From positions 8,138 to 36,442 of the forward strand of contig CAYYFU010000001.1 in NCBI GenBank assembly GCA_964471095.1: a DNA stretch of 28,305 nucleotides. The letters are read 5' to 3'. The translations under genes and the position numbers were made by a program. Below the pieces are notes generated by a model. The model saw only the letters and a list, made by a program, of their open reading frames with translations, made no database searches and was not told the origin of the DNA. This DNA comes from an uncultured Pseudomonadota bacterium (lineage in GTDB: Bacteria > UBA10199 > JACPAL01). Positions 2,511-25,339 of the stretch are shown here, piece by piece (the first letter of the stretch is position 1; the number at the start of each line of letters is the position of its first letter).

Positions 2511-2516
2511 CTCTTC

Positions 2517-2545
2517 AACCTAACAAAGTCACTTGCCAAACTCAA
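2517..2545 (-). promoter_or_regulatory. Candidate sigma70 promoter giving a leaderless yceD transcript
   Basis: Minus strand TTGAGT-N17-TAGGTT-N6-ATG(2510); no Shine-Dalgarno. Confidence 0.4.
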
Positions 2546-2572
2546 CTCTCTTGAACTAGCCTGCGGGCCGCC

Positions 2573-2953
2573 ATGTTGAGGGCCTTGCTCAAATCAAAGA
2601 TCCACCGGGCGCGGGTCACCAAGGCCGACCTTCATTACGAGGGGAGCATCTCGATTGACGCCGCGCTGATGAGGGCGGCCGATCTGGTCACCCACGAGCA
2701 TGTCCATGTCTGGAACGTCACCAACGGAAGGCGGTTTGAGACCTATGTGATTCCGGCGCCACGCGGCTCCGGCCAGATCCAGATCAACGGGGCGGCGGCC
2801 CACCATGCCCGCAAGGGGGATCTGGTGATCATCGCCAGCTTCGCCCATCTGTCGAACACGAAGGCAATCCGGCATCGACCGCGGGTCGTTTTTGTCGACA
2901 CGAAGAACCGGATCGTCCGCATCGCCCGCCAGAGCGGGGCTGACAGCGCCTGA
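2573..2953 (+). CDS. panD: Aspartate 1-decarboxylase
   Basis: [18 protein letters not shown]|SISID self-cleavage site, [23 protein letters not shown]; 126 aa. Confidence 0.97.
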
Positions 2954-2974
2954 TCGAAGCAAAGTAAATCGTTA

Positions 2975-3001
2975 GCAACCTTTGTCCGGTCCAGCCGACA
3001 A
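2975..3001 (+). promoter_or_regulatory. Sigma28-like promoter copy 1
   Basis: GCAACCTT-N11-GCCGACAA, 26 nt upstream of ATG 3028. Confidence 0.65.
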
Positions 3002-3027
3002 GCCTGTCAGAAGGGTCGGCCATCACC

Positions 3028-3735
3028 ATGGGACTGGGTCCAGACTTTATTTCCTGCCTGCAGAGGGAGTATCAGCCGCCGCCTTCCGGCGGGGGTGACC
3101 CCCTGTTCGCGGAGACAACGGCACGGGTCAAAACGCTGAAAGGTTGCAGTCGGTTCCTCCTGCCCGGGCAGAAGGAGGAGGCGGCTGTCTGGGTCTTTTC
3201 CGGCCTCTGGCGGGATGCCCTTGAGAAGAGGGGGGTAAAGAACCTCTCCCTCCCCGAACAATCGTCAGTCGCCGCGGATATCTACTCCGGGGTCCGCGAG
3301 ACCTATTTCCACTGGCACCTCTTCCCTGCCGGCGGGGCGATCCTCGGGGCGGTCCTTACGCGCCTGCCCAGTGAGGGGCATCCGCCTATGGTACTCGGTG
3401 CAGTGGTGGGGAGTCTGTTGGGGGGGATGTACGGAATGACCGTCGAGGTCCAGGCAAGGGGGGATCTCGCCCATCTGCTTTCTCAAGACCCGGAGCAAGA
3501 GAGCCGGGCGGTTGCCGATTTTCAGACCAACGAGGCCTTTTACTCCGGCCAGCTCTGCCTATCGGCCGTTATCTCCCTCGCCGGTCTCGCTGTCCTGATA
3601 ACACGCCGGGGGTCTCGGTTGAGCCGGAGGGTTGTCTCTTCTGTCGCCGCCTTATGGGTAGTGGCCCTTGCCCCGGAGGCCCTCATCGCAAGACGGAGGG
3701 GGAAACCAACCCAGTTGATGAACATGCTGGTCTAG
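3028..3735 (+). CDS. Hypothetical membrane protein (about 4 C-terminal hydrophobic segments)
   Basis: 235-aa ORF fills the panD-lipoprotein gap; Gly-rich TM-like stretches (AGGAILGAVL, MVLGAVVGSLLGGMYG, LSAVISLAGLAVLI, VVSSVAALWVVALA); preceded by the promoter motif. Confidence 0.7.
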   Translation: MGLGPDFISCLQREYQPPPSGGGDPLFAETTARVKTLKGCSRFLLPGQKEEAAVWVFSGLWRDALEKRGVKNLSLPEQSSVAADIYSGVRETYFHWHLFPAGGAILGAVLTRLPSEGHPPMVLGAVVGSLLGGMYGMTVEVQARGDLAHLLSQDPEQESRAVADFQTNEAFYSGQLCLSAVISLAGLAVLITRRGSRLSRRVVSSVAALWVVALAPEALIARRRGKPTQLMNMLV

Positions 3736-3965
3736 AAAAGGAGCTGCTTATGTCATTTTTTAGCGAAGTTCAGGGCCACAAAAGGACCGGTACTTACGAT
3801 CGAACGGCTGATCGGGTTGCGGTAACAGTCCCGTCGGGTGATTCCGGGACGGGAGGCTGCTGGCGACAGGGATCCGTCCCGTTAGCGGGAATCACCGGAG
3901 TTTTGGGCGTTTGGGTGCCAAGTCTGTTTCGGAGGGTCGTCAGACCACCGTTGGCGCTTGGGTCC

Positions 3966-4463
3966 ATGTTGAGGATGCCGGTGCCGCTCCGGGGCCCCTG
4001 GATGGTTGGCCTGACACTCTGCCTGGCGGCGATCGGATGCGGGCAGGAGGGTAATGGGACAGGTGGGGTTCGGGGTCTCGACGGCATTGATGGCGAGACC
4101 GGTCCCGCCGGTCCAACGGGACCTCGGGGTCCTGAGGGGCCTGAGGGACCGACCGGCCCGAGCGGGGCCGTAGGGGTTTTTGATCCTGCCCTGTGTCATC
4201 TCGTGGAGGAGCAGATTTCTCTGACTTCCACTCAGGCGGTCGAGGCCTCCTGCGCCGAGGATGAATTTCTCGTGAGTGGCGGGTGTGACAACCAAGGTAA
4301 CGGCAGCTGGCTGATTGACGTCTCCATCTTTACGGACAAACCGCTGCCCGGGGGAGGAGGGACGCTCCTCGGTGGGGCCTGGAGGTGTGGGATCTCGGGT
4401 TCAACAGGGGGGTCCGGAAGCCCAACGATCACCGCCTATGCCATCTGCTGCAACTCTCCTTGA
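3966..4463 (+). CDS. Collagen-like (Gly-X-Y) lipoprotein with small Cys-containing C-terminal domain; start uncertain (3750, 3966, 3975 or 4002)
   Basis: VGLTLCLAAIG|C lipobox (Cys 4038), 13 consecutive Gly-X-Y triplets (4056-4172), then ASCAEDEFLVSGGC...WRCG...ITAYAICC. An in-frame ATG at 3750 has a good AAGGAG Shine-Dalgarno. Confidence 0.8.
   Translation: MLRMPVPLRGPWMVGLTLCLAAIGCGQEGNGTGGVRGLDGIDGETGPAGPTGPRGPEGPEGPTGPSGAVGVFDPALCHLVEEQISLTSTQAVEASCAEDEFLVSGGCDNQGNGSWLIDVSIFTDKPLPGGGGTLLGGAWRCGISGSTGGSGSPTITAYAICCNSP
4056..4172 (+). repeat. Collagen triple-helix Gly-X-Y repeat (13 triplets)
   Basis: GTG GVR GLD GID GET GPA GPT GPR GPE GPE GPT GPS GAV. Confidence 0.9.
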
Positions 4464-4515
4464 CAATCCCAAGGTACGGGGATACGGCAGAATGGGGCAT
4501 TAGGGAGGAATTCCA

Positions 4516-5028
4516 ATGAAGACAATCGCAGCTTTCTTCCTCGTCATTTCCCAAGTTTCACTGATACCGGGCGGCCCCCTCTGGGCCTCAACCCCTTCTC
4601 TGTTGCAGGAGAGTCCGGTCGTCCAGCGCCTGTCCGAAGAGGAGATGGGGAACCTCTGGGGCGGGACCTATTCCTCCCAGCTCGACATCGAGAACCCGTA
4701 CCACGACAACTCCATCAACACGACCTCCACCTTTTACTACCGAGTCAGCTACCGGTCGGTCGACGGGGATTCCGGTCAGAATCTCCGCCTGCGCATCTGG
4801 CTGGATGATTACTTGGCCCGAGATGACGTCATGACCACCAACGGCAGCTGGGCCCTGAGTGGTGAGGTCTCCGGTAACTTTTCCGGGAACCTCGTGACAA
4901 GGGACCCGACCGCCTTTGTCGCCGAAATCGTGAAGGACTACGACGGCTCCACCGATACTTATTGCGGCGATTCCGCCACAGATCGTGTCATCCTGGCTCG
5001 GGAATCGATCCTCCTGCATCCCTACTAG
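4516..5028 (+). CDS. Secreted protein with Sec signal plus double-glycine leader peptide (putative C39 substrate)
   Basis: GGAGG Shine-Dalgarno; signal peptide MKTIAAFFLVISQVSLIPGGPLWA; LSEEEMGNLWGG at residues 39-50 (4630-4665) matches L(-12)S(-11)xxE(-8)L/M(-7)xxI/L(-4)xGG; ~120-aa beta-rich mature part. Confidence 0.85.
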   Translation: MKTIAAFFLVISQVSLIPGGPLWASTPSLLQESPVVQRLSEEEMGNLWGGTYSSQLDIENPYHDNSINTTSTFYYRVSYRSVDGDSGQNLRLRIWLDDYLARDDVMTTNGSWALSGEVSGNFSGNLVTRDPTAFVAEIVKDYDGSTDTYCGDSATDRVILARESILLHPY

Positions 5029-5037
5029 GAAAAGAGA

Positions 5038-7062
5038 ATGCAGTGGCTTGCCGCCTTTTTCTCGGGGGGGATGATCCTCCTCGCACTTCCGCCGTTTGAT
5101 TTAAATAGTCTGGCCTGGTTCGCCTTCGTCCCGGTGTTGATTGCCCTCCATCGGTGCCCTTCCCGCACCCAGGCTGTCTTTCTTTCCGTTCAAACGGCAC
5201 TGATCGCGCTCGGCGGAATTTTTTATAGCGTCTGGTTTTTTTCCAAAATCTTTACCCTGGGCGGCTGGTTGGGGCTCTCCCTCCTTTTTGGGGCGGTCGG
5301 CCTTCTTTACCACCGCGCCTACCGTAACCTCTATCCGACCCTCTGGACCCCCTGGCTGGCTCCCTCGCTGTGGGTTTTGATCGAATATCTCCTCACGAGT
5401 CCCACGGTGGCACTCCCGATTAACTTTGCCGTGGCCGGGACTGCGTATCCCCGTTTGATCCAGGTCGCCTCCGTGACCGGCATCTTCGGCGTCTCCTTCA
5501 TCTTAACCGCCGGCAGCGCATCGCTCGCCTACGGTTATGACCTGATTCGAGAGAAGCGATGGCGTCCCCTCGCTGTGCACACGGTGATCCTCGGTTTCCT
5601 CTCCCTCCTCATTTTTCTTTATGGGGGCACCCGTCTCCACCGGGTCGGCGACCGTCAAAAGGCCCTTTCCTTTGCGGCGCTCCAACCGCGCGTCCCGTCC
5701 GAGATCTATCGGTACCGCTGGTTGAGGCCCGAGATCCGCCAGGGGCTGACGAACCACCTCGACCGGCTGTCGCAGACGGCCCTCTCGCAGCCCGTTGACC
5801 TGTTGATCTGGCCGGAGGGAGGCAACGGTTATTTTAACCTCCGCATTCCGAGTCTGCGGGAAAAGATTCAGCGCCTGGGGCAAAAGGGTCGGGCCGACAT
5901 TCTCCTCTCCTCTGCCGATCTGGATCAGGAATTCAGGCGGTTCAATTCGATCTTTTCGATTTCAGCTGAGGGTCGCCTGCTGGGGAGATACGACAAGAAT
6001 TACCTGACGCCGATCGGCGAATCGCAGTTCACCGCAGGAACCGGAGGCAAGCTTCTGCCGACAAGATATGGACCTTTCGGCGCGATGATCTGTTTTGAAT
6101 CCTGCTTCCCGACTTATGCCCGCCATCTGGCCAACGAGGGGGCTCAATTCCTCTTCGTCTCCTCCTCGGATGCCCCCTTCCGACGGTCGGTCCTCCCCCT
6201 CCTCCACGCCCGCGTGGCCCAGTTCCGGGCGATTGAAACCGGCCGATTCCTGATCCGGGCTGCCAACACCGGCCCCTCCTTTGCGGTGGATCCGGCAGGG
6301 CGCATCACGACCCACTTGAATTTTTACGAGGAAGGTGTCCTGATGGGCGCGGTCGAGCCACGAAATGAGCGGACGCCCTACATGCGCTTTGGCGATTGGC
6401 TGGTCGTTGTTTCCCTCGTGTGGGTCGGCGGAGGGCTGTATCCGTTGAGAAAAGTGCCTCCTCCCGCCCTGTCCGCCGGAAGAGCCCCGTGGAGAGGTGT
6501 CGTTTGGCAGACGGCGGGCGCTTGCGGCATGGCAGTCCTGATGGCCGGTTCAAGCTCCTTGGCGGTCCATTATCAGACGCGGGAGACAACCGGGTCCTTC
6601 GCCAGCCTCTCGGAAAACGCCCTGAGGTCAGGGGAGCCGGTGACGGCGGTCTTCGAGCAAAGGAAGAGTCATACCTGCGGCCTCGAGTCCTTGGCCTATG
6701 TGATGAGTTACCTCGGTGAGGAGGTCTCGTCGGCGGCCCTCGAGAAAAAAGTTTCTCTCACCCCTCAGGGTCTCCCGATGAGCGAGTTGGCCCGGCTGGC
6801 CCGAGAGACCGGTTTCACCGCCGTGGGGGAGAAGCGGAACTACCGGGCCCTGATCGATGCACCCAAACCGCTGATCGCCCACATCCGGGACGATCACTAT
6901 GTCGTGATTGTCGAGAGCGATCGCAGGAGCGTCACGTTGTTCGATCCCGCAAGATCCCGGGAGGGGTTCCTTCGCGTCCCGGCGGCCGGTTTCCAAAAAT
7001 TCTGGCGGGGGAATCTCCTCAGGATCGGAACCAAGGAAATCCCAAAAGAGGTGTCCTCATGA
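5038..7062 (+). CDS. lnt: Apolipoprotein N-acyltransferase (Lnt)-like protein fused to a C-terminal C39 cysteine peptidase domain
   Basis: N-terminal TM bundle; nitrilase-fold triad WPE260G, YDK320NYLTPIGE, IC352FES, RAIETGRFLIRAANTG. After two more hydrophobic segments comes a C39 domain: QRKSHTC547G, DH620YVVI, LFD636PA. Confidence 0.9.
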   Translation: MQWLAAFFSGGMILLALPPFDLNSLAWFAFVPVLIALHRCPSRTQAVFLSVQTALIALGGIFYSVWFFSKIFTLGGWLGLSLLFGAVGLLYHRAYRNLYPTLWTPWLAPSLWVLIEYLLTSPTVALPINFAVAGTAYPRLIQVASVTGIFGVSFILTAGSASLAYGYDLIREKRWRPLAVHTVILGFLSLLIFLYGGTRLHRVGDRQKALSFAALQPRVPSEIYRYRWLRPEIRQGLTNHLDRLSQTALSQPVDLLIWPEGGNGYFNLRIPSLREKIQRLGQKGRADILLSSADLDQEFRRFNSIFSISAEGRLLGRYDKNYLTPIGESQFTAGTGGKLLPTRYGPFGAMICFESCFPTYARHLANEGAQFLFVSSSDAPFRRSVLPLLHARVAQFRAIETGRFLIRAANTGPSFAVDPAGRITTHLNFYEEGVLMGAVEPRNERTPYMRFGDWLVVVSLVWVGGGLYPLRKVPPPALSAGRAPWRGVVWQTAGACGMAVLMAGSSSLAVHYQTRETTGSFASLSENALRSGEPVTAVFEQRKSHTCGLESLAYVMSYLGEEVSSAALEKKVSLTPQGLPMSELARLARETGFTAVGEKRNYRALIDAPKPLIAHIRDDHYVVIVESDRRSVTLFDPARSREGFLRVPAAGFQKFWRGNLLRIGTKEIPKEVSS

Positions 7063-8618
7063 GAGTCCTGCTCTTTTCCATGCCGGACGGGACCCATCCG
7101 CTTTTCCCCCGGTTTTGCCGTCCGCCGAACCTGGGGCTCGCCTCGCTGGCCGGAAATCTGAAAGAGGAGGCGGACGTCACGGTGGCGGATCTGATCCTGA
7201 AACGGGAGAACGTCCCAGCCGCGATCCGTGAAGCCCTTGAAAAGGTCAGGCCCGACGTCGTCGGACTCTCCTGCATGACCTTTCAATATGATACGGCCAA
7301 ACGGGTTGCGGCAGAGATTCGTTCTTGGAATCCCGACGTTCCGATTGCCCTGGGAGGCTATCACCCCTCCATGACGTACCGTCAGATCGGGGAGCAGGAC
7401 ACACACCGCTTTGATTTTATCTGCCGCGGGGAGTCCGAGGTCACCCTCCGGGAGCTCGTTGTCACGCTCAAGCGGGGGGATCAGGATTTCGGCCCGATCC
7501 TGGGACTCTCTTGGAGACAGGGGGGATCTTTTCACCACAATCCGGAGCGTCCCATATCACCGCTCGAACAGATCATGCCGCCGGCTCGAGGTTCGAGACT
7601 GTGGGGAGGGTATCACATCCACGGTCGTCGCTTTGATCACGCGGAGTCCTCCCGCGGCTGCACGCTCCCCTGTAACTTTTGCAGCATCACGAAGATGTAC
7701 GGTCGGAATTTCAGACCGTATCCTCTGGACCGCATCCTCGACGATCTGACCGAGGCGGCACGCCTCGGGACGCAAGAAATCTTTTTTGTCGACGACAATA
7801 TCACCCTCAAACCAGGACACCTGGAACAACTCTGCGACGGGATCATCGAACGGCGCTTAAACCGGGTCCTGGAGTTCTCGACCCAGGCGTCCGTTGCCGG
7901 ACTCTACCGGGACATCCGGGTGGTCCAAAAGATGGCCGAGGCTGGATTTGTCCTGGTCTTCCTCGGGATTGAAAATGTCTCCAAGCGAAACCTGCTGAAT
8001 TACAAGAAGGGGAATATCGTGGAACTGGCCCGTGAGGTGATTCGGGAACTCCGGAAAAATAAAATCATGATCATGGGGGGGTTCGTCCTGGGGAGCCCCG
8101 ACGATTCGGAGGAGGATCTGCTGGACCAGTTTGCCTTCATGCGGAAGCAGGCCCTGGACTCCTACCTCGTTCAGATTCTGACGCCCTACCCGAATGTCCC
8201 CTTGACGGCCGATCTGGAACAACAGGGGATGGTCGTCAACCCAGACTTCCGGCGCTACTCGGGACTCTTTGCGAATGTCAGGACCAAGCACCTCTCTTCC
8301 TATGATCTTGATTTTTTAAGATGGAAACATTTCCCTTACTATCGGGATCTCCGCTGGTTCCTGAATGCGGTCGCTCCGCGGAGATTCACTTGGGGCGTCT
8401 TCAAGGAAACGCTCATCCGTTTTGGCGAGTGGCTCACCGAAAAATGCCGCAAGTTCCTCGTGTCCGAAGAATACGCTTTTCGAAAACAGATGAAAAAGCA
8501 GATTGCCTCTAATCTCTTTTTTGGGGAATCCCCCGAAGTGACCTGGCCCGACCGGGTTGCCCCTGCGGAAGCCCGCTTCCCCCAACTGGCCCTGGACAGC
8601 GTCCGGAAACTGTACTAG
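7059..8618 (+). CDS. Cobalamin(B12)-binding radical SAM enzyme
   Basis: N-terminal B12-binding domain (PNLGLASLA, PDVVGLSCMT, LGGYHPS), RGCTLPCNFC (CxxxCxxC at 7659-7682), FFVDDN, FLGIE, LTPYP; ATGA overlap with the lnt-C39 stop. Confidence 0.92.
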   Translation: MRVLLFSMPDGTHPLFPRFCRPPNLGLASLAGNLKEEADVTVADLILKRENVPAAIREALEKVRPDVVGLSCMTFQYDTAKRVAAEIRSWNPDVPIALGGYHPSMTYRQIGEQDTHRFDFICRGESEVTLRELVVTLKRGDQDFGPILGLSWRQGGSFHHNPERPISPLEQIMPPARGSRLWGGYHIHGRRFDHAESSRGCTLPCNFCSITKMYGRNFRPYPLDRILDDLTEAARLGTQEIFFVDDNITLKPGHLEQLCDGIIERRLNRVLEFSTQASVAGLYRDIRVVQKMAEAGFVLVFLGIENVSKRNLLNYKKGNIVELAREVIRELRKNKIMIMGGFVLGSPDDSEEDLLDQFAFMRKQALDSYLVQILTPYPNVPLTADLEQQGMVVNPDFRRYSGLFANVRTKHLSSYDLDFLRWKHFPYYRDLRWFLNAVAPRRFTWGVFKETLIRFGEWLTEKCRKFLVSEEYAFRKQMKKQIASNLFFGESPEVTWPDRVAPAEARFPQLALDSVRKLY

Positions 8619-8633
8619 AGGTCGGTCCTCACT

Positions 8634-9647
8634 ATGGCCACCATCTATTACGATAAAGATTCCCCGCTCGAACCGCTCAAGAGGAAAAAAATTGTCGTCT
8701 TCGGTTACGGTTCACAAGGACATGCCCATGCGCTGAATCTGAAGGACAGCGGGCTGGATGTCATGGTCACCCTGCGACCGGGGAGCAAGGCGATTGACCG
8801 GGCGAAGGCGGCCGGGCTGACGGTCACGACCGATGCCGATCAGGCGGCACGCATGGCCGACGTCGTGATGATCGTCGTCCCGGACGAAAATCAAAAACAA
8901 CTCTGGGACGAGCATCTGCAGAAAAACCTGAAGAAAGGGGCGGCGCTGTTTTTTGCCCACGGCTTCAACATCCACTTCAAGCGGATCATCCCCCGGCCGG
9001 ACCTCGATTGCATCCTGATCGCCCCCAAGGGACCGGGGCATCTGGTCCGGACGCAGTTTCAGGAGGGGGTCGGGGTTCCTTGCCTCATTGCCGTCGGACA
9101 AGATGCAACGGGCCATGCCCGGGAGACCGGGCTGGCGTATGCCAAGGGGCTGGGGGGAACACGGGCCGGCGTCATCGAAACCACCTTCAAGGAAGAGACC
9201 GAGACCGACCTGTTCGGCGAGCAAGTGGTGTTGTGCGGCGGTGTGACCAGCCTGATGCAGGCCGGTTTTGAAACGCTGGTTGCGGCGGGGTATCAGCCGG
9301 AGATTGCCTACTTTGAATGTCTGCACGAACTGAAGCTGATCGTGGACCTCGTTTACAACGGCGGGCTCGCGAACATGCGCTATTCGATCTCCAACACCGC
9401 CGAGTACGGCGACTATACCCGCGGGCCGCGGATCGTCACGAGCCAGACCCGGAAGGAGATGGAGAAGATTTTGAAGGAGATCCAGTCGGGCGAGTTCGCC
9501 AAGGAGTATATCGCCGAGTGCGAGAAGGGAAACCCGGTTCTCAACAAGGGACGCGATGAGACCGTCAAGAGCCAGGTCGAGAAGGTGGGGGGTACGCTCC
9601 GTAAGATGATGCCGTGGTTGCAGGGTTCGGTGAAACAGAGGGAGTAA
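8634..9647 (+). CDS. ilvC: Ketol-acid reductoisomerase
   Basis: [78 protein letters not shown]. Confidence 0.98.
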
Positions 9648-9658
9648 CACCCCCCGCT

Positions 9659-10468
9659 ATGACGATACGCAAACCGGCCGTTGCCGGCAGTTTTTATCCC
9701 GCTGAACCTGAAAAACTCAAAAAAGAATTAACCCGTTGTCTGGCCGGACCGCCAATGCCGAAGCGACGGGCGATTGGTCTGGTCGTCCCGCATGCCGGAT
9801 ACATGTACAGCGGCGCGGTCGCCGGGGCGCTGTACCGGCAGATTGACCTCCCACAAAAACTGATCATCCTCTCCCCGAATCACACCGGCTCCGGCGCCCC
9901 CTGTTCGATCGACCTGCGCGACGGCTGGGAGACCCCACTCGGTGTCGCGCCGATTGACCGCGATCTGGGGAACCGTTTCATGAAAAATTGTCTCTCACTG
10001 GAGGAGGACACTGAGGCGCATCTTCAGGAGCACTCGCTCGAGGTCCAGCTCCCATTCTTGCAGTCCCTGAAGCCCGATTTCTCTTTCGTGCCGGTCACGC
10101 TCTCGTATCTTCCGTACGAGATTTGCCTCAAGATCGGCAAGGGACTTGCCGAGACCGTCCGGTCATCGCCGGAGCCGGTGCTGATCATCGCCAGCTCCGA
10201 CATGAATCATTACGAAAACCAGCAGGTCACACTCAAAAAAAACCAGGTGGCGATCGACCAGATCCTCAAACTCGATCCGGAAGGACTTTACCGCGAGGTG
10301 AAGAAAAACGGCGTCACGATGTGCGGGATTATTCCAACCACCGTGATGCTGGTTGCCGCCCGGGAACTGGGGGCCAAAAAGACGGAGCTAATCCAACACA
10401 AGACCAGCGGCGACGTGACCGGCGATTACGGCTCGGTGGTCGGGTACGCGAGTTTGATCGTCTCTTGA
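9659..10468 (+). CDS. amrB: AmmeMemoRadiSam system protein B (MEMO1-family, dioxygenase-like fold)
   Basis: IRKPAVAGSFYP, VVPHAGYMYSG, SPNHTG, EHSLEVQLPFLQ, IASSDMNHY, TMCG, TSGDV...VVGYA. Start moved from 9614 to ATG 9659, which removes the overlap with ilvC. Confidence 0.93.
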   Translation: MTIRKPAVAGSFYPAEPEKLKKELTRCLAGPPMPKRRAIGLVVPHAGYMYSGAVAGALYRQIDLPQKLIILSPNHTGSGAPCSIDLRDGWETPLGVAPIDRDLGNRFMKNCLSLEEDTEAHLQEHSLEVQLPFLQSLKPDFSFVPVTLSYLPYEICLKIGKGLAETVRSSPEPVLIIASSDMNHYENQQVTLKKNQVAIDQILKLDPEGLYREVKKNGVTMCGIIPTTVMLVAARELGAKKTELIQHKTSGDVTGDYGSVVGYASLIVS

Positions 10469-10479
10469 CTTCAAGTGGT

Positions 10480-10500
10480 TTCTATAAGAATATATAAGAA
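10480..10500. promoter_or_regulatory. Candidate toxin-antitoxin autoregulatory operator
   Basis: TTCT-ATA-AGAA inverted repeat (10480-10490) and TATAAGAA direct repeat (10483, 10493) just upstream of the antitoxin Shine-Dalgarno. Confidence 0.35.
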
Positions 10501-10514
10501 ACAAGGAGGCGGGG

Positions 10515-12077: not shown

Positions 12078-13109
12078 ATGTTTGCGCCAAAATACCGGAT
12101 TAGTGATTTATTATTAAGTAACATTAAGAAGATAGCAACGATTGTCAGCGAATTAAACAGTCGCTCATTCACCCAGACCGTGTTGGCCAAGTTTGAAAGG
12201 GAGGCAACCTCCCTGTCGGTCCATGCCTCGACCAGCATCGAGGGGAATCCCCTGCCGCTGACCGATGTCAAAAGGATACTCAAAACGAGGCCGGAGAATC
12301 TTCGGGAGACCGAACGCGAGATCCTGAATTACAACAGCGCCCTGGAACGGCTCCACCAACAGATGAAGGGGGGGCAGGTTGCCGTCAGTCTTCAGCTGAT
12401 ATGCAACATCCAGCAACAGGTCACCGACCGCCTGATTGCGAAGCACCGATGCGGAAAAACCAGAACAGAGCCGGTTTTCGTTAATGACCCAAGGAGCGGC
12501 AAAACGGTTTATTGGCCGCCTGATCACCAAGACGTTCCACGCCTGATGGACGAATTGCTCGACTTTGTCCGTTCCAAAAGAGGCCTGGCCGATCCTCTCG
12601 TCCTGGCGGGAATTTTTCACCGGCAGTTTGTCATCATTCATCCGTTCATGGACGGAAACGGCCGAACCGCGCGACTTGCCACCAAAACTATCCTCGCGGA
12701 TATGGGGCTCAACACATTCAACCTCTTCAGTTTCGAAAATTATTACAACAATAACGTCTCCGCTTATTTTCAAAAGGTCGGCGCCATCGGCAATTATTAC
12801 GACATCGCGGCGGATATTGATTTCACCGAATGGCTGGAATATTTCACCGGCGGGATCATTGATGAGTTGTTGAGGGTGAAAAAGGATTTGGCGGTTGAGG
12901 CGGCGTCGCCATCGACGCGGTTGCAACCGCATGACAAGGCAATTTTGGATTTCATCCGCAAGGAGGGGTTTATCACCGATCGGGATTACGCCGGTCTAAC
13001 GGATCGGGCCAAGGCGACGCGGGCGCTGGATTTCAGGAAGCTGATCGAACAGGGGCTGATCGAGCGTTTTGGAAAAGGCAGGGCGACCCACTACAAACTG
13101 AAATCCTAG
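12078..13109 (+). CDS. Class II Fic-domain protein with C-terminal winged HTH
   Basis: Inhibitory motif STSIEGN, catalytic HPFMDGNGRTAR, C-terminal ILDFIRKEGFIT...ATRALDFRKLIEQGLIERFGKGRATHY. Confidence 0.93.
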   Translation: MFAPKYRISDLLLSNIKKIATIVSELNSRSFTQTVLAKFEREATSLSVHASTSIEGNPLPLTDVKRILKTRPENLRETEREILNYNSALERLHQQMKGGQVAVSLQLICNIQQQVTDRLIAKHRCGKTRTEPVFVNDPRSGKTVYWPPDHQDVPRLMDELLDFVRSKRGLADPLVLAGIFHRQFVIIHPFMDGNGRTARLATKTILADMGLNTFNLFSFENYYNNNVSAYFQKVGAIGNYYDIAADIDFTEWLEYFTGGIIDELLRVKKDLAVEAASPSTRLQPHDKAILDFIRKEGFITDRDYAGLTDRAKATRALDFRKLIEQGLIERFGKGRATHYKLKS

Positions 13110-19038: not shown

Positions 19039-22000
19039 TTATTTGACCTGCACCGGTGAGTCGTGCTGGACAATCAATTCGATCGCCTGGGTCTTCTGGT
19101 TCCCGGTCGTATCGGCTACCGTGACGACGATCGTGTAGGTCCGGCCGGCCCCGGCCCCCTCACGCTCGGCCCGCAGGTTAAAGGTCGCGAGGTAGCTGCC
19201 ATCCCCCTCGGGATCGTAGAAGTCGATCACCACCGGCGTGTCGTACCCGTCCGCCCCGTTCACATCACCGGTCGTCCGACCGTCGCCCAGTCCCGCGGCG
19301 TCATCCGGCTCACTGCTGGTGGCATATGCCTCGAGGATCGCGATCTCGGTCGGGGCGGCGAGGTCGTCGGTGAGCGAGAGGTTCAACGTGATCGGGACCA
19401 TCTTGTGGTTCGGCGGCCAGAGGTATCCCATCGGCGACGTGGTCAGGAGGACGGTCGGCGGCGTGGTATCGACCACCGGCTCCGGATCCTCGCTATGGAT
19501 CGTCCCGACCGCCGAGACCTCGGCACGGTTGGCGTCACGGATCACCAGCGTCATCGTCTCATCCGCCTCAAAGAGGTCGTCGTTGATAATCTCGACCCAG
19601 ATCGGGACCTCCGTCTCCCCGGCCCCGATCGCCGCATCCTCCGAAATCCCGTAATAGTCCTCACCGGCAATCGCCGTCCCGTCAACCGTCTCAACATGGA
19701 TCGGGATATCGTGGCTGCTCGGGATCGAGAGGGTCGCCGTGAAGGCGAGGGTGGCGCCCGGTTCATCCCCCTCGACCGGCGCCAGGGTCAAGACCGACGT
19801 GTCGTTGTCGGTGATCGTCACGGTCGCCTCCGGCCATGCGAGGGTCATCCCTTGCGGATCGGTGAACGAGAGCATGAATGCCTCGTCATCCTCATCCAAC
19901 TGATCGTCGTTAATTGGGAGCTGGATCGTCCAGAGAACCTCGCCCGGCGGGATCACGATCAGCCCCCCCATCGGGGTGTAGTCGTCGAGGGCGGTCGCCG
20001 TTTCATCGAGCTTTGTGTAGGCAAAGGAGACCTCATGGCTCTGCGGGCCGGAAAGCCCTGCCCTGAAGAGGGCGAAACCTGAATCTTCCTCTACTTGAAT
20101 CGCCCGCTCAAAGCTTAAAGCGGGGGGATCGTTGTCAAGGATCAGGACGGTTGCCTCGGCATCCCCCAGGGTTGCGTTGGTCGGGTTGGAGAGATGGACC
20201 AGGAAGGTCTCGTCGAGCTCGGGGACAAGGTTATCCACGAGGACCACGGAAATCGTCTTGGAGACCTCGCCGGGGACAAAGCTAAGGGACCCACTGGTGT
20301 CGGTAGAGGCATAATCGTAACCTGCGGCGGCGGTCCCATCCACCATTGCGTAATCGACCGTGATCTGTTTGCCGCTCGGGCCGGAGAGATTGACCGCCAC
20401 GGTCGCCGACACGCCTCCTTCCAACACGGCTGAATCCAGAACGGAGACGGTCGGGGGATTGTCGTCATCGGTGATCGTCGCAGTAGCGGTCGCGTCCCCG
20501 AGCAGGGCGTTTTGCGGCGCCGAGAGCGTCACGCTGAAGGTCTCGTCGTCCTCGTCCAGCGAATCGAACAGGATCGGGATCGAAACCGTCGCACTCGTGG
20601 CGCCGGCCGGGATGATCACGAACCCGCTGCTCGCCGTGTAGTCGTTCCCCGCTGTCGCCGTTCCGTCGGCGGTCGCATAGCTGACCTGCACGTCAAGGCT
20701 CGTCGACTGCGACAGCGTGACCGTAAAGACCGCCGTGTCGTCACCGCGACCTTCAATGATCGTCAGGTCGCCGATTGAGATGGTCGGGAGGACGATCACC
20801 TGATCGTTGTCGATGATGCTCCCGATCCCTAGTGCATCGGCGATCGTCGCCATCTGTGGCCCGAGGAGTTTCAGGTAAAAGAGCTCGGTGTTTTCAATAA
20901 GGCTGTCATCAAGGATCGCTACACTGACCGTCTTGGAGGTCTCGCCCGGCGCGAAGGTCAAGGTCCCGCTCACCGCGGTGTAATCCGAGCCGGCGGCGGC
21001 CGAATAATTCACGGTGGTGTAATTCACCTTCACGATAAAGCTCGATCCCCGGGAGAGGGTGACCGGGAAGAGGGCCGGACCGGCCCCTTCGGTGATCGAG
21101 GTGTCTCCCACAGCGAGCGTCGGCGGGGCATCGTTGTCGTTGATCGTCCCGGCGCCGATCCCGTCGGCCACCGAGGGACTCCCGGAGACGTAGGTCAGTT
21201 TCATCTGGTAGGTCTCGCTCGGTTCATCGGTTAGGTCGTCAATGATCGGGACCGGGATCTGCTTGACCGTCTCGCCCGCCGCAAAGGTCAGTGTGCCGTT
21301 CGTGGTGGCAAAGTCGCTCCCCGCCAGCGCCGTTCCGTTGGCCGTTGCATAGTTCAGTACCGCGGTGTCGGAGGAGGCGAGGTCCATTGTTACGGTGAAA
21401 TTAGCGTTCCCGGCCGACTCGAGCACCGCGACATCGTTGATCGAGAAGGAGGCGAGCAGGAACCGGGCGATCACCGCATCGCTGTTTCCGCTCGTATTCG
21501 TGCCATAACCGGTTGTGATGAGACGATTGTCGGAGGTGACCGCCATGTCGTTCATCCTCGCATTGCTGACCGGCAACGCCCGAACCTGGGCCCCGAAGAT
21601 CGGATCGAGCGAGCCGTTGGAAAGGTACCGTGCCATGGCGAAAGCGTAGGTGTTGGTCTGGGGATTGAGAACGTATCCGCCCAGCAGGATCTTCCCGTCC
21701 GGCTGGAGATCAGCGGCCGTCATCTCTCCTCCCCCGTAGTTGGCAAAGGAGGTGGTCACCTTGCCGGCCGTCCCGAAACTCGAGTCGAGCGCCCCTGATG
21801 CGAGATATCGGGCAATGGCAAAACGATCCCCGTACAAGGTCGCGAAGGAATCGCCGGCCGCCACAATCTTCCCATCTGGCTGTTGAAAACAGGAGTTTGC
21901 CGAATCATTCCCATTGGTGAGCGACGTCACCACGATGCCGTCCGTGTCAAAGGTGGCGTCGAGTGTCCCGTCGGAAAGGAGGCGGGTCAGCGCAAAGACG

Positions 22001-22752
22001 CCGATCAAGTGGCCCGTTGCCGGGTTAAGCGCCGCCGCCGTTCCACAGGCGACGATCTTCCCGTCCGATTGGATGAAGATATCATTCAAAAATTCGTCAT
22101 GATCGATCGTCTGATATAGCGATGCGGCAGAAGAGACATTGACCAAGACAACCCCATCGGTCCCGAAGGTGGTGTCCGTCGTCCCGTCGGCATTGACACG
22201 GGCGATCCCGAAGCGGTTGTCGTTGTCGATCGTGTGGGTGCCGGCGAGGAGCATCCCTCCATCTGCCTGAAGGACAACCCGCCGCGGGCCGATCGTCTCC
22301 AGGATGACAAACCCGCCGGTGCCGAAATCCGGATCGAGGGTCCCGTCCGGGAGGAAGCGGGCCAGAAAGGCATCGTTCGTGCCGTTGGCGTAGCCGACCG
22401 CGACGATCTTGCCGTCCGGCAACAGGGCGATGTCGTTCACAAATTCATTCTGTTGCAGGAGATCGGTCACCGCGATCCCGCCGGTGCCGAAGTCCGGATC
22501 GAGGGCCCCGTCCGGCAGATAACGGAGCAACATAATGTCCGATGTGGCACCGCCGGTCTGGCCCCCGACGATAAACCTTCCGTCCGGCTGTTCGATGACC
22601 GCCTTCGCGGCGTCGATCTGACCGGAGATGTCTGTGATCGTCTTGCCGAGCGTCCCAAAGGAGGGGTCAAAACCGCTCGGGGCGGCCGCGACTGAAAGAG
22701 GGAAGAGGAGAACGAAAAAGAGGCCAAACCAGATTGTGGGCCTGTTCATCAT
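19039..22752 (-). CDS. Large secreted protein: 7 delta-60-type beta-propeller repeats, 6 Calx-beta repeats and a C-terminal WPPNHKM domain (adhesin-like)
   Basis: Signal peptide MMNRPTIWFGLFFVLLFPLSVAAA; seven QPDGKI-like/LDPxFGxGG repeats; six Calx-beta units (Y.T.DGTA.AG.DY....G.L.F..GET.K.I.V.I.DD...E..ETF); GYLWPPNHKMV...LRAEREGAGAGRTYTI. Start moved from TTG 22809 to ATG 22752. Confidence 0.9.
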   Translation of the reverse strand: MMNRPTIWFGLFFVLLFPLSVAAAPSGFDPSFGTLGKTITDISGQIDAAKAVIEQPDGRFIVGGQTGGATSDIMLLRYLPDGALDPDFGTGGIAVTDLLQQNEFVNDIALLPDGKIVAVGYANGTNDAFLARFLPDGTLDPDFGTGGFVILETIGPRRVVLQADGGMLLAGTHTIDNDNRFGIARVNADGTTDTTFGTDGVVLVNVSSAASLYQTIDHDEFLNDIFIQSDGKIVACGTAAALNPATGHLIGVFALTRLLSDGTLDATFDTDGIVVTSLTNGNDSANSCFQQPDGKIVAAGDSFATLYGDRFAIARYLASGALDSSFGTAGKVTTSFANYGGGEMTAADLQPDGKILLGGYVLNPQTNTYAFAMARYLSNGSLDPIFGAQVRALPVSNARMNDMAVTSDNRLITTGYGTNTSGNSDAVIARFLLASFSINDVAVLESAGNANFTVTMDLASSDTAVLNYATANGTALAGSDFATTNGTLTFAAGETVKQIPVPIIDDLTDEPSETYQMKLTYVSGSPSVADGIGAGTINDNDAPPTLAVGDTSITEGAGPALFPVTLSRGSSFIVKVNYTTVNYSAAAGSDYTAVSGTLTFAPGETSKTVSVAILDDSLIENTELFYLKLLGPQMATIADALGIGSIIDNDQVIVLPTISIGDLTIIEGRGDDTAVFTVTLSQSTSLDVQVSYATADGTATAGNDYTASSGFVIIPAGATSATVSIPILFDSLDEDDETFSVTLSAPQNALLGDATATATITDDDNPPTVSVLDSAVLEGGVSATVAVNLSGPSGKQITVDYAMVDGTAAAGYDYASTDTSGSLSFVPGEVSKTISVVLVDNLVPELDETFLVHLSNPTNATLGDAEATVLILDNDPPALSFERAIQVEEDSGFALFRAGLSGPQSHEVSFAYTKLDETATALDDYTPMGGLIVIPPGEVLWTIQLPINDDQLDEDDEAFMLSFTDPQGMTLAWPEATVTITDNDTSVLTLAPVEGDEPGATLAFTATLSIPSSHDIPIHVETVDGTAIAGEDYYGISEDAAIGAGETEVPIWVEIINDDLFEADETMTLVIRDANRAEVSAVGTIHSEDPEPVVDTTPPTVLLTTSPMGYLWPPNHKMVPITLNLSLTDDLAAPTEIAILEAYATSSEPDDAAGLGDGRTTGDVNGADGYDTPVVIDFYDPEGDGSYLATFNLRAEREGAGAGRTYTIVVTVADTTGNQKTQAIELIVQHDSPVQVK

Positions 22753-22805
22753 TTTGGTTGTAGCTATCAGGAAGCAATTATCCGACCAATCCACGGGATA
22801 TCTGA

Positions 22806-22839
22806 TCAAAATGATTTTGAAATAGCATTAACTAGTTAA
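22806..22839. promoter_or_regulatory. Two adjacent palindromes in the divergent AT-rich intergenic region
   Basis: TCAAAAT-G-ATTTTGA (22806-22820) and TTAACTAGTTAA (22828-22839). Confidence 0.3.
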
Positions 22840-22996: not shown

Positions 22997-24232
22997 ATGA
23001 TCCCAAAGGCTCGAGTGGTGGCCACCCTCGCGAGGGAGGTCATGGGGGTGGTTCGCCGCAGTCCATCGCTAGCCGAGAAATTGGACTCGTTTTGCCTGGT
23101 TGGCGGACCTAAGGCAGGCGGGCTAACTGACCCTCGATGTTTTATGGTTCGACTGGGGTGGACCGGCCTTCCAAAACCCCCTCACGTGGGAACGGTTCTC
23201 CGGGCAATCCGGGCGAGAAAGGGGCTGACACTCCTTCAAATCGAACAGATCAGCGGCATCTCGCAAACGGTCCTCTCGCGCATCGAAAAGGGGAAGGTCC
23301 GTCCAACAGAGGAATCGGTCCTAAAGATCACGCAGGCGCTTTTTAACGACGGTCAAATCGCCCCCGGGGATCTTAAGGCCGTTTACACCCATTTGAATCC
23401 GGAGGTCCGCTCCCTCCGCTATTTCACCGAGACCGGCACTGCCGGCACCTTTTGGATCGATCTTCCGCCCGGCATCACCCTCGACGACATCATCCACCTT
23501 CATGTCAGCCTGTTCATCGAGCGGGCGATCGTCCGCAGGGGGCTCAAACGCCGTGATGTGGCCCGCCAACTCGGAATGCGATCTGAAACCTTCGAATCGC
23601 TGTTGAAGAGAGATCTCGGTCCGGTCCCCCTGGAGACCATCCAAAAACTCGCGGCAATCACCAAATTGCCGGAGAGCTTCCTGTATTTCGGCTACCACCG
23701 CGAGATGCGGTTTTTTCTTGAGATCGCAATCCGGGGGGCACGCGGTGGGACTTTGAGTCATCCCACACCGGCCGCTTTTCAGACCAAAGAGGTCCTCCGC
23801 CGCTTTCGCTCCCATTGCCGAACGCAGGGGGAAAGTGACTATCTGGAGCTGATCGAATCGGCTTCCCCGAGCGAACGGGACGCCGCTTTTTATTACCTCG
23901 ATCGGGGACACAACACCAACCTAAACCGAGTCTTTTACACCCTGAAGGTGCCGGCCCCCTTCTCCAGCATCGAGGAGATCCGGGCGATCGATCTTCGAGC
24001 CCGCCTCATCGAACGAAAGGGTCGCGAAAGTATGGACGCCTTTATGAAAAGGCACGGATTGGGTCGAAAGGTCTTCGAATCTACCTTTCCGCTGGGGGCG
24101 GCCGAACATGTCCTGCCGCGGATCCCAAAATTAAAGAGTCTGGCAAGGGCGGCCGACCTGCCGGAACCGGTTGCACTTCTCTGGTTCTGGCCGCATCTGG
24201 CCAAGAAGGTTGAGGTCCTGTTCCGCTGCTAG
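22997..24232 (+). CDS. Multi-XRE-HTH domain protein (two clear and one degenerate HTH)
   Basis: VGTVLRAIRARKGLTLLQIEQISGISQTVLSRIEKG; RRGLKRRDVARQLGM; RESMDAFMKRHGLG...KLKSLARAADLP; linker GTFWIDLPPG shared with neighbours. Confidence 0.8.
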   Translation: MIPKARVVATLAREVMGVVRRSPSLAEKLDSFCLVGGPKAGGLTDPRCFMVRLGWTGLPKPPHVGTVLRAIRARKGLTLLQIEQISGISQTVLSRIEKGKVRPTEESVLKITQALFNDGQIAPGDLKAVYTHLNPEVRSLRYFTETGTAGTFWIDLPPGITLDDIIHLHVSLFIERAIVRRGLKRRDVARQLGMRSETFESLLKRDLGPVPLETIQKLAAITKLPESFLYFGYHREMRFFLEIAIRGARGGTLSHPTPAAFQTKEVLRRFRSHCRTQGESDYLELIESASPSERDAAFYYLDRGHNTNLNRVFYTLKVPAPFSSIEEIRAIDLRARLIERKGRESMDAFMKRHGLGRKVFESTFPLGAAEHVLPRIPKLKSLARAADLPEPVALLWFWPHLAKKVEVLFRC

Positions 24233-24246
24233 GCCAAACTTTTCCC

Positions 24247-24273
24247 GCAACCTTGTCGGACAACTCACGATAA
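24247..24273 (+). promoter_or_regulatory. Sigma28-like promoter copy 5
   Basis: GCAACCTT-N11-CACGATAA-N10-ATG(24284); lies within AAACTTTTCCCGCAACCTT (24236-24254), identical to 25342-25360. Confidence 0.65.
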
Positions 24274-24283
24274 CCGGCTTGTC

Positions 24284-25339
24284 ATGGTCCTTGGCCCGCC
24301 CATTTCGTCCCGGCCGATCACTTGGGAATCCTCTCCATCAGCCGACCAGCCGCCCGATTCTCCCGCCTCGCGCCTCTTCAAGACGACCTTCAGCATTGCC
24401 GGGCTCACTCTAGCTGTCGTTCTGGCGGGGAAGGGGGCGGGCGGATCAACGCTGGCACAATTCGAGAAGCTCCTTCCGAAACTGATTAACGGCATCGTCG
24501 CGGGAGGCAAAGCGGTCAAAATTCAGATCGGATTGCTTCTGTTTTACGTCCGAAAGGACCCGGCGTTTCAGGACCATGCGCGTGAGGTTGTCTTTGGGCG
24601 ATGGAGAGGGGCTCCCGCCAATAGCGAGCTGCGGGTGGTGTTGGACGACCTCCTGAAATTGGTCAAAAATCCCCCTCCGGAGAAGAGGCTTAGGGTGGTT
24701 AAGAAGGCCGTTGTCCGGCAACGACACAGGCCGATCGATGGACCGCTCGCAGAGGTTGCCCGGTTGCTGATCGCCAAGCGGGAATCACTCAGGTTGTCCC
24801 AACGAGTCGTCGCCACAGGGGCCGGTGTCGACCGTTCCTATTACTGTCGATTGGAGGGGGGGAAGGCATGTCTGCCCCACTCTCTGCTGAGGGTATTGCG
24901 CTTTTTCAACGAGCGCGCCCCCTACACCGACGCTGAACTGATCGCGATCTACCGGGCCTGGCGGCCAACGGAGATCAAGACCGAATGGTTCGATCTGGAG
25001 CGGGGAATCTTTTGGGTCAAACTTCCGCCCGGAATGACCCTCGAGCAGGCGATCGCCCTCTCCTTAAGTCAGTTCGCGCAACAACTTCTGCGCGACAAGG
25101 GGCTCTTGCAGGCAGCGATCGCCGAGGCGATCGGGCGCACCAGCGGCTCGTCGACCGACCTCTTCTCCGGACTCACCCATCACCTCAAGTTAGAACAATT
25201 GGAGGCCTTGGCGCGACTCGGCCGGGTTGACGGCTCCCTCGCGTACCTCGCCGGCCGCCCCTATCTCGCTGATTTTTGGACGATCGGCATCCGGAGGACC
25301 AACCGGAGTTTCCGCCGACCGGTCGCCGCCCGGTTCTGA
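24284..25339 (+). CDS. Double XRE-HTH protein, paralog of the upstream gene, with Ser/Pro-rich N-terminus and a hydrophobic segment
   Basis: LIAKRESLRLSQRVVATGAGVDRSYYCRLEGG; GIFWVKLPPGMTL; DKGLLQAAIAEAIG...LEQLEALARL. Confidence 0.78.
   Translation: MVLGPPISSRPITWESSPSADQPPDSPASRLFKTTFSIAGLTLAVVLAGKGAGGSTLAQFEKLLPKLINGIVAGGKAVKIQIGLLLFYVRKDPAFQDHAREVVFGRWRGAPANSELRVVLDDLLKLVKNPPPEKRLRVVKKAVVRQRHRPIDGPLAEVARLLIAKRESLRLSQRVVATGAGVDRSYYCRLEGGKACLPHSLLRVLRFFNERAPYTDAELIAIYRAWRPTEIKTEWFDLERGIFWVKLPPGMTLEQAIALSLSQFAQQLLRDKGLLQAAIAEAIGRTSGSSTDLFSGLTHHLKLEQLEALARLGRVDGSLAYLAGRPYLADFWTIGIRRTNRSFRRPVAARF

Follow-up and report, generated by a model that had tools for sequence, protein, structure and literature searches.

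An open reading frame that continues past the end of an apolipoprotein N-acyltransferase (Lnt) into a C39 peptidase raises the question of where the protease resides, since the canonical Lnt C-terminus is in the cytoplasm whereas the Lnt active site is in the periplasm. An earlier note had proposed, from the sequence alone, that a second hydrophobic segment following the terminal Lnt helix returns the chain to the periplasm, so that both catalytic domains face Sec-exported substrates and could channel them. To examine this proposal, we analysed the ORF at 5038..7062 in its context, a 28,305-nucleotide stretch of DNA from an uncultured Pseudomonadota bacterium (contig CAYYFU010000001.1), referred to here as the window. 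The features to which we refer, with assignments that are computational throughout, are as follows.

4516..5028, + strand: candidate substrate gene, 170 aa.
5038..7062, + strand: whole Lnt-TM9-C39 fusion ORF, 674 aa.
5041..5643, + strand: Lnt membrane domain, helices TM1-TM7, aa 2-202.
5644..6375, + strand: predicted periplasmic nitrilase-like acyltransferase domain, aa 203-446, with catalytic triad E260, K320 and C352 (C352 codon at 6091-6093).
6397..6453, + strand: TM8, aa 454-472, the canonical terminal Lnt helix, predicted to run from periplasm to cytoplasm.
6454..6489, + strand: short basic/Pro loop, aa 473-484, predicted cytoplasmic.
6490..6576, + strand: extra helix TM9, aa 485-513, predicted to run from cytoplasm to periplasm.
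6577..6648, + strand: predicted periplasmic linker, aa 514-537.
6649..7029, + strand: C39 double-glycine leader peptidase domain, aa 538-664, with Q541, C547 (codon 6676-6678), H620 and D636.
7059..8618, + strand: B12-binding radical SAM gene.

First, we asked whether both enzymes are complete. The reading frame is uninterrupted, and Pfam profiles identified LNT_N at aa 9-158 (PF20154, 60.1 bits against a cut-off of 27.1), CN_hydrolase at aa 237-440 (PF00795, 92.8 against 23.2) and Peptidase_C39 at aa 538-663 (PF03412, 72.3 against 22), while the NCBIfam lnt model TIGR00546 scored 178.9 bits against a cut-off of 132.9. E260, K320 and C352 are invariant in 59 aligned Lnt sequences, and C352 lies in ICFES, which aligns with ICYE of solved Lnt. 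The protein aligns with E. coli Lnt over aa 5-459, and its AlphaFold2 model (mean pLDDT 92.4, pTM 0.92) superposes on all solved Lnt structures (5N6H, 5N6M, 5VRG, 5XHQ) with a target TM-score of 0.75-0.83 over about 510 columns, although sequence identity to solved Lnt is only 21-24%. In the model the membrane domain comprises helices 2-16, 23-39, 43-61, 70-98, 104-119, 149-171 and 175-202, in agreement with the established topology of Lnt, which has eight TM helices, both termini in the cytoplasm and the nitrilase domain in the periplasm between H7 and H8 (PMC5500888). In the C39 domain, Q541, H620 and D636 are invariant and C547 is conserved in 13 of 14 fusion proteins, and a family profile matched LahT150 (6MPZ, E = 3e-19), PCAT1 (4RY2) and ComA (3K8U) with Q, C, H and D aligned. 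Thus, a complete Lnt is followed by a catalytically intact C39 domain.

We next tested whether the fusion could be an artefact of two genes joined by error. A word-indexed search with the C-terminal 233 aa alone gave no hits, and a later profile search of limited candidate depth returned only 5 fragments. However, an exhaustive HMMER search revealed 13 further full-length homologues from independent samples with the same layout at 31-39% identity, and dozens more among 50%-identity representatives. Relatives come from Gammaproteobacteria, Thioalkalispiraceae and Desulfocapsa MAGs. Together with the absence of any stop between the domains and a continuous, confident model, this conserved architecture all but excludes a sequencing or assembly error, even though split versions of the pair do exist in other samples.

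Having established the fusion, we examined the region between the two enzymes. The terminal Lnt helix (FGDWLVVVSLVWVGGGLY, aa 451-468; AlphaFold2 helix 454-472) aligns with the start of H8 of E. coli and P. aeruginosa Lnt, and is followed by the basic loop RKVPPP..GRAPWR (aa 471-486) and the second hydrophobic segment (GVVWQTAGACGMAVLMAGSSSLAV, aa 487-510). Kyte-Doolittle (KD) hydropathy at a threshold of 1.5 missed both C-terminal helices, and the second segment of this protein, rich in Gly, Ala and Ser, is the weakest in the family (KD19 = 1.42). On the Hessa scale (3.8), nevertheless, it is more favourable than four accepted Lnt helices of the same protein (5.9-6.9) and far below the minimum of either soluble domain (10.2 and 11.5). 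Moreover, the segment is present in all 14 aligned family members (KD 1.4-2.6), and 38 of 38 fusion proteins examined have exactly two hydrophobic segments after the nitrilase domain. AlphaFold2, which does not model the membrane, gave a 29-residue helix at aa 485-513 with pLDDT 77-92. The linker that follows is near neutral and of conserved length in the family (19-34 residues, median 27), with a lower pLDDT (63-83; 63 at aa 531-540), so the C39 domain may be mobile.

To investigate the orientation of the extra helix, we turned to charge distribution and comparative evidence. The loop between TM8 and TM9, which with its flanks (PLRKVPPPALSAGRAPWR) contains 4 K/R and no D/E, has a K+R density of 25 per 100 residues across the family, equal to that of the other cytoplasmic loops; in the 38 fusions, K+R/D+E is 196/47 in this loop but 101/127 in the linker after TM9. 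Over the whole nine-helix model, 'in' loops have 184 K+R in 865 residues (21%) and 'out' segments 42 in 1215 (3.5%; odds ratio 7.5), and the charge alternation of TM1-TM7 fits an N-in topology. Importantly, in three independent loci (designated L018/19, L021 and L023/24) the protein is split exactly in this loop, giving an Lnt that ends in TM8 plus a basic tail, followed at -8, +20 or -4 nt by a gene for a basic N-terminus, a TM helix and C39. In addition, 38 standalone relatives have a homologous N-terminal helix with the charge asymmetry of a signal anchor (N-flank K+R/D+E 97/10, C-flank 64/41). One relative is a fusion of C39 to OEP, a TolC-like outer-membrane protein, and is followed by an MFP and a MacB-type permease, and L018 encodes Lnt, TM-C39, PD40, OEP and MFP in order.

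We then asked what the enzyme might act on. The gene immediately upstream (4516..5028), preceded by a strong AGGGAGGA ribosome-binding site, encodes a protein with a predicted Sec-type signal peptide (aa 1-24, MKTIAAFFLVISQVSLIPGGPLWA, followed by S), a pro-leader (aa 25-50) ending in the double-glycine motif LSEEEMGNLWGG, followed by TYSS, and a mature domain (aa 51-170) with no Pfam or NCBIfam match; the protein has no lipobox cysteine. It is the only ORF in the window with the signal plus GG pattern. It aligns with 10 homologues from other Lnt-C39 loci, the invariant positions being the Pro and Ala of the signal-peptidase site and the first Gly of the GG motif, and a neighbour with signal peptide and GG leader was found at every locus that has upstream sequence. 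As a control, 12 ORFs have both features where about 2.5 are expected. The leader differs slightly from the classical consensus, since across the family the hydrophobic residue falls at -3 and the acidic residue at -10. On the other side, the start of the B12-binding radical SAM gene overlaps the Lnt-C39 stop (ATGA), so it is probably co-translated; an orthologue follows the split TM-C39 gene in L021, and radical SAM genes follow in two further loci, L006 and L008. A promoter and terminator scan of 2500-10600 was no better than shuffled sequence, and a PHROGs scan gave nothing relevant.

Taken together, all the computational evidence, resting on hydropathy, charge statistics and comparison, agrees that TM9 returns the chain across the membrane, and we conclude with fair confidence that the ORF encodes a nine-helix inner-membrane protein in which the C39 protease probably sits in the periplasm on a ~27-residue tether, on the same side as the Lnt active site. 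The proposal of the earlier note is thus supported as to topology, while channelling between the two domains remains an inference. The substrate is most likely the upstream protein, which would be exported by Sec, lose its signal peptide to signal peptidase I after ..PLWA, and then be cut after the GG by the C39 domain; like the periplasmic location, this cleavage is a strong inference. Acylation of the new N-terminus by the Lnt domain is possible, and would resemble the action of AatD/CexD on the N-terminus produced by signal peptidase I, giving a non-cysteine N-acylated lipoprotein. However, the residue after the GG varies (T, S, G, A, N).

Several alternatives were weighed against this model. 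The C39 domain could process the neighbouring GG-leader proteins in the periplasm while the Lnt part is just the ordinary lipoprotein N-acyltransferase, or only a membrane scaffold, without any coupling or channelling. We consider this less likely but possible, since the Lnt part passes the lnt equivalog cut-off and keeps every canonical catalytic residue, the residue after the GG is not conserved, unlike in AatD substrates (PMC7943197), and a predicted classical lipoprotein (lipobox-like LAAIGC) lies just upstream at 3654..4463. On the other hand, standalone TM-C39 proteins anchor themselves, so no Lnt scaffold is needed, yet the pairing is kept as a fusion or as overlapping genes across very divergent lineages; one locus (L004) carries two tandem Lnt-C39 paralogues next to three leader-bearing ORFs, which looks like a dedicated system rather than a housekeeping gene; the nearest Lnt relatives are fused to a different protease, CPBP; and relatives sit in OEP/MFP/MacB operons that parallel the Aat lipoprotein system. 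It is also conceivable, though improbable, that the order is reversed, with the Lnt domain acylating the pro-leader after signal peptidase I cleavage and thereby holding the pro-protein at the membrane until the C39 domain releases the mature protein by cutting at the GG. The constant length of the pro-leader (~20-26 aa) in all substrates and its similarity to the tether length would fit such a membrane-proximal cut, but there is no precedent and the residue after the signal-peptidase site is not conserved either (S, F, M, A, V), while nothing in our data distinguishes this order from cleavage followed by acylation.

Very unlikely, in our view, is that the second hydrophobic segment is interfacial or packed against the protein, leaving C39 in the cytoplasm as in PCAT transporters. 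The moderate hydrophobicity of this protein's segment would allow it, all characterised transporter-linked C39 domains are cytoplasmic (PMC5557850), and the nearest solved relatives are PCAT domains. However, the segment is strongly hydrophobic in homologues, the loop before it is K/R-rich whereas the linker after it is not, split and standalone forms begin with the signature of an N-in/C-out signal anchor, a relative is fused to OEP, the candidate substrates carry Sec signal peptides, and no ABC exporter is encoded in the window.

Comparison with known systems showed where this protein departs from each. Relative to solved Lnt, it carries about 200 extra C-terminal residues and is encoded next to non-lipobox candidate substrates. 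It shares the fold family and Gln/Cys/His/Asp catalytic set of PCAT/AMS C39 domains, and the associated substrates have a double-glycine or Gly-Ala leader with an L-S-x-x-E-L-like amphipathic motif, but here the domain is C-terminal, not attached to an ABC transporter (no ABC_membrane or ABC_tran domain was found, and NCBIfam PCAT models matched only the ~120-residue C39 portion, at 43 bits against 853) and predicted to face the periplasm, and the candidate substrates carry a Sec signal peptide in front of the GG leader, whereas PCAT substrates have none. FapD of the Pseudomonas Fap amyloid system is a C39 peptidase that works on Sec-exported proteins, requires its catalytic Cys and was shown to be active in the periplasm (PMC5557850); it is, however, soluble with a cleavable signal peptide, sits in a fap operon and has an undefined substrate motif, whereas here the domain is tethered by a signal-anchor-like helix, is fused or adjacent to an Lnt and has a clear GG leader nearby, with a GG-leader protein, a B12 radical SAM enzyme, KARI and a Memo-like protein as neighbours and nothing Fap-like found. 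In the Aat/Cex system, an Lnt homologue, AatD/CexD, N-acylates in the periplasm a Sec-exported, proteolytically processed non-cysteine N-terminus (PMC7943197; PMC13622617). Aat has no C39, and signal peptidase I creates the invariant N-terminal Gly that AatD needs, whereas in our candidate substrate Ser follows the predicted signal peptidase I site and Thr the GG. OEP, MFP and MacB-type genes, the same parts as AatA, AatB and AatP, occur in the loci of relatives (L018, L020, L023) but not in the window. The CPBP fusions, about 35% identical over the Lnt part, also carry a protease after the terminal Lnt helix, but it is a polytopic intramembrane glutamic protease rather than a soluble cysteine protease predicted to be periplasmic.

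While periplasmic C39 activity and non-cysteine N-acylation are each known, we found no description in the literature of this fusion or of its dual-leader substrates. A more far-reaching interpretation, which we offer only tentatively, is that the Lnt-TM9-C39 proteins and their split versions define a previously undescribed protein-lipidation pathway of diderm bacteria, in which a pre-pro-protein is exported by Sec, its GG pro-leader is removed in the periplasm by the membrane-tethered C39, and the fused Lnt paralogue immediately N-acylates the new, non-cysteine N-terminus. This would create a class of lipoprotein independent of Lgt and LspA, which some lineages then hand to a MacAB-TolC-like exporter.

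If the predicted topology is right, these proteins are a second, much larger group of C39 double-glycine proteases that work outside the cytoplasm, FapD being the first, and they come with a clear substrate signature of a Sec signal peptide followed by a GG pro-leader. That changes how such GG-leader ORFs in Gram-negative genomes should be read, because they need not be bacteriocins exported by ABC transporters. The fusion would also give a natural example of how adding one helix re-targets a normally cytoplasmic catalytic domain to the periplasm. Moreover, the physical fusion to an Lnt paralogue makes testable the specific hypothesis that proteolysis creates an N-terminus which is then N-acylated, and this would extend the recently discovered AatD/CexD type of non-cysteine lipoprotein from a few enteric pathogens to environmental Gammaproteobacteria and Desulfobacterota.

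Having located an open reading frame at 5038..7062(+), which is a continuous 674-aa frame, we first asked which domains it encodes and whether these retain their catalytic residues. Pfam finds LNT_N (aa 9-158), CN_hydrolase (237-440) and Peptidase_C39 (538-663), all well above the gathering thresholds, and NCBIfam's lnt equivalog model TIGR00546 scores 178.9 bits against a cut-off of 132.9. The earlier note had described a terminal Lnt helix, a short basic/Pro loop and a second hydrophobic segment between the nitrilase domain and the C39 domain, and we found these segments exactly where it had placed them. The Lnt triad E260/K320/C352 is invariant in a 59-sequence alignment. The C39 residues Q541, H620 and D636 are invariant, and C547 is present in 13 of 14 fusion proteins; one family member, P0014, has a Tyr instead of the catalytic Cys (..NPSYGAA..), and it may carry an inactive, substrate-binding C39-like domain. 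Moreover, a profile of the C-terminal module aligns these residues with the solved double-glycine proteases LahT150 (6MPZ, E = 3e-19), PCAT1 and ComA. Both halves of the protein therefore look catalytically competent.

To rule out the possibility that the fusion results from two genes joined by a sequencing error, which the earlier note had named as a possible refutation, we searched for proteins of the same layout. A full-length search found the window's own protein plus 13 other full-length proteins (662-720 aa) with the same three Pfam domains, which are only 31-39% identical and come from independent JGI, ENA, NCBI and Logan samples. An exhaustive HMMER search with aa 441-674 against 1.84 billion cluster representatives gave 1274 hits at E <= 1e-3, and the top of the list is dominated by further 640-760-aa proteins with the C39 at the C-terminus; those tested have LNT_N + CN_hydrolase + C39. 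The joining of two genes by error is therefore excluded. Interestingly, the closest Lnt relatives of the Lnt-C39 clade (P0016, P0018, P0020, P0022 and others) are ~680-aa proteins in which Lnt is fused to a CPBP/Rce1-like intramembrane protease (PF02517), P0016 having seven more hydrophobic segments after TM8, while one protein, P0119, fuses Lnt to TatC (PF00902). Lnt paralogues appear to be fused to proteases repeatedly.

We next examined the extra helix. By Kyte-Doolittle (KD) hydropathy the second segment of the window protein is only moderate (1.42) and failed a threshold of 1.5. On the Hessa biological scale (3.8), however, it is more favourable than four accepted Lnt helices in the same protein (5.9-6.9), and it is far below anything in the two soluble domains (minima 10.2 and 11.5). 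In homologues the segment is strongly hydrophobic (KD 1.65-2.56), and across 38 fusion proteins there are always exactly two hydrophobic clusters between the nitrilase domain and the C39 (38/38). In agreement with this, AlphaFold2 (59-sequence alignment, mean pLDDT 92.4, pTM 0.92) models a helix at 454-472, a 12-residue loop and a 29-residue helix at 485-513 before the C39 fold.

To investigate on which side of the membrane the C39 domain lies, we started from the established topology of Lnt, for which crystal structures show eight TM helices, cytoplasmic termini at both ends, and a nitrilase domain in the periplasm bridging H7 and H8 (PMC5500888). The window protein aligns with E. coli Lnt over aa 5-459, and its model superposes on every solved Lnt structure (target TM-score 0.75-0.83 over about 510 columns); TM8 therefore ends in the cytoplasm. 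Six independent lines of computational evidence then support a location of the C39 outside the cytoplasm. One additional helix is present in every family member, and the charge distribution follows the positive-inside rule, since the TM8-TM9 loop has K+R/D+E = 196/47 whereas the linker after TM9 has 101/127. Over the whole nine-helix model of 14 proteins, predicted cytoplasmic loops carry 184 K+R in 865 residues and predicted periplasmic segments carry 42 in 1215 (odds ratio 7.5), and the TM8-TM9 loop has 25 K+R per 100 residues, the same density as the other cytoplasmic loops.

Importantly, in three loci of relatives (L018/L019, L023/L024 and L021) the same module is encoded as two genes. An Lnt ends right after TM8 with a short basic tail (C-termini ..FLHRKDKESE and ..IFQSARNKSRK) and is followed, at an 8-nt overlap, a 4-nt overlap or a 20-nt gap, by a ~190-217-aa protein that starts with a basic N-terminus (MNKK.., MKFKSLK.., ..KKQKRR..), one hydrophobic helix, about 35 residues and the C39. 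The break lies exactly in the basic loop, and a protein of that form is a classical N-in/C-out signal anchor. Consistently, 38 standalone relatives of this kind have an N-flank K+R/D+E of 97/10 against 64/41 after the helix. Furthermore, one relative (P0194) is a C39 fused to a TolC-family outer-membrane factor, which must be exported, and it is followed by a HlyD-type adaptor and a MacB-type permease. Classical PCAT architectures, with an N-terminal C39 in a ~720-aa ABC transporter, appear only far down the hit list, at E of about 1e-9. Relatives of this C39 clade sit in envelope-spanning gene sets, as follows.
L020 234..4737: a C39-OEP fusion, a HlyD-type MFP and a MacB-type permease
L018 1..3889: Lnt, TM-C39, a PD40 beta-propeller, OEP and MFP
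L023 69..3550: OEP, Lnt and TM-C39
Relatives come from Gammaproteobacteria, Thioalkalispiraceae and Desulfocapsa MAGs, all diderms.

The sixth line of evidence comes from the likely substrates. The gene immediately upstream (4516..5028), which has a strong AGGGAGGA ribosome-binding site and a stop codon 9 nt before the Lnt-C39 start, encodes MKTIAAFFLVISQVSLIPGGPLWA / STPSLLQESPVVQRLSEEEMGNLWGG / TYSS..., where the slashes separate the parts. This reads as a Sec-type signal peptide with a signal-peptidase I site, followed by a ~26-residue pro-region that ends in a double-glycine leader motif. Homologous small proteins with the same two-part N-terminus lie upstream, on the same strand, in every other locus that has upstream sequence (L002, L004, L006, L008, L010, L012, L013, L014 and L016), the first part ending in P-V-F-A and the second in L-(S/T)-(D/E)-x-x-(M/L)-x-x-x-(V/I)-G-(G/A). 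In the locus L001 a larger Cys-rich protein carries the same arrangement of a signal and ..DAELARVVGG. Large DUF1800 proteins (followed by DUF1501) in L002 and L004 start with the same signal peptide, GG leader and small N-terminal domain as the small substrates, and the leader is therefore attached to more than one kind of cargo. As a control, we scanned 449 six-frame ORFs in 12 non-redundant loci (149 kb); fourteen have the GG pattern, and 12 of these also have a signal-like start, against about 2.5 expected. Since classical PCAT substrates have no Sec signal, a leader arranged as a signal peptide followed by GG makes sense only if the protease is periplasmic.

The surroundings of these genes, in the window and in the loci of relatives, contain the following features.
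window 3654..4463 (+): ORF directly upstream of the substrate gene, with collagen-like Gly-X-Y repeats (PF01391, below threshold) and an internal Met followed by MVGLTLCLAAIGC, which looks like a lipoprotein signal peptide with a lipobox cysteine
window 7059..8618 (+): B12-binding radical SAM gene overlapping the Lnt-C39 stop codon (ATGA)
window 12078..13109 (+): Fic/DOC family protein (PF02661), among housekeeping genes (a beta-CASP RNase, gltX, and PAP2 and CDP-alcohol-type lipid enzymes)
window 19039..22809 (-): 1255-aa protein with six Calx-beta domains and DUF5122 beta-propeller repeats, probably a large surface or secreted protein
window 22997..25339: tandem HTH (XRE-type) regulator genes flanking the preceding ORF
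L021 881..1360: orthologue of the B12-binding radical SAM gene, following the split TM-C39 gene
L006 8164..9255 and L008 4421..5740: other radical SAM genes, following
L002 5171..5827, L004 131..763, L006 4564..5187 and L008 1515..2177: cyclophilin-type peptidyl-prolyl isomerase gene just upstream of the substrate/Lnt-C39 genes
L002 941..3238 and L004 1412..3724: the DUF1800 proteins with the signal peptide and GG leader
L004 5879..7867 and 8001..10109: two Lnt-C39 paralogues (P0013, P0011) in tandem, next to three leader-bearing ORFs
The radical SAM enzyme, which is cytoplasmic and probably translationally coupled to Lnt-C39, may modify the precursor before export. The cyclophilin gene is conserved in four relatives, but it was not found in the window.

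Comparison with known systems showed that a periplasmic C39 is not new in itself, since FapD of the Pseudomonas Fap system has a Sec signal peptide and was shown to be active in the periplasm, its authors noting that this class is uncharacterised (PMC5557850). N-acylation of a non-cysteine N-terminus by an Lnt paralogue is also known, from AatD/CexD, an Lnt homologue that acylates the N-terminus of a Sec-exported, signal-peptidase-processed protein in the periplasm (PMC7943197; PMC13622617). However, we found no description of an Lnt-C39 fusion, of its ninth helix or of substrates with a Sec signal and a GG leader; no paper in the library searched mentions peptidase C39 together with Lnt, and no NCBIfam model is specific to the fusion. 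By the criteria we could apply, the protein qualifies as an Lnt and as a peptidase C39, while it lacks the defining architecture of PCAT transporters, the operon context of FapD, and the gene set and Gly rule of the Aat system. Thus, what appears to be new lies in the fusion, its ninth helix and these substrates, and we do not regard the protein as a new category.

Taken together, these data allow the strong inference that the C39 faces the periplasm and removes the pro-leader of the neighbouring Sec-exported protein. We further propose, more tentatively, that the Lnt domain then N-acylates the new N-terminus. Speaking against this step, the +1 residue is variable (T, S, G, A, N) rather than an invariant Gly, the Lnt part scores as an ordinary Lnt, and the window has no OEP, MFP or MacB genes. 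On the other hand, the two activities stay paired, as a fusion or as overlapping genes, across very divergent lineages, the locus L004 has its two tandem paralogues next to three leader-bearing ORFs, the nearest Lnt relatives are fused to a different protease, AatD/CexD provides a precedent, and relatives lie in operons with OEP, MFP and MacB-type genes, the same parts as AatA, AatB and AatP. The earlier note had suggested that the two catalytic domains could channel their substrates, which remains an inference; the linker at aa 531-540 is modelled with lower confidence (pLDDT 63), which suggests a flexible tether. In summary, the topology proposed in the earlier note, in which the added helix returns the chain to the periplasm, is supported by six concordant computational lines, and functional coupling of the two active sites is plausible.
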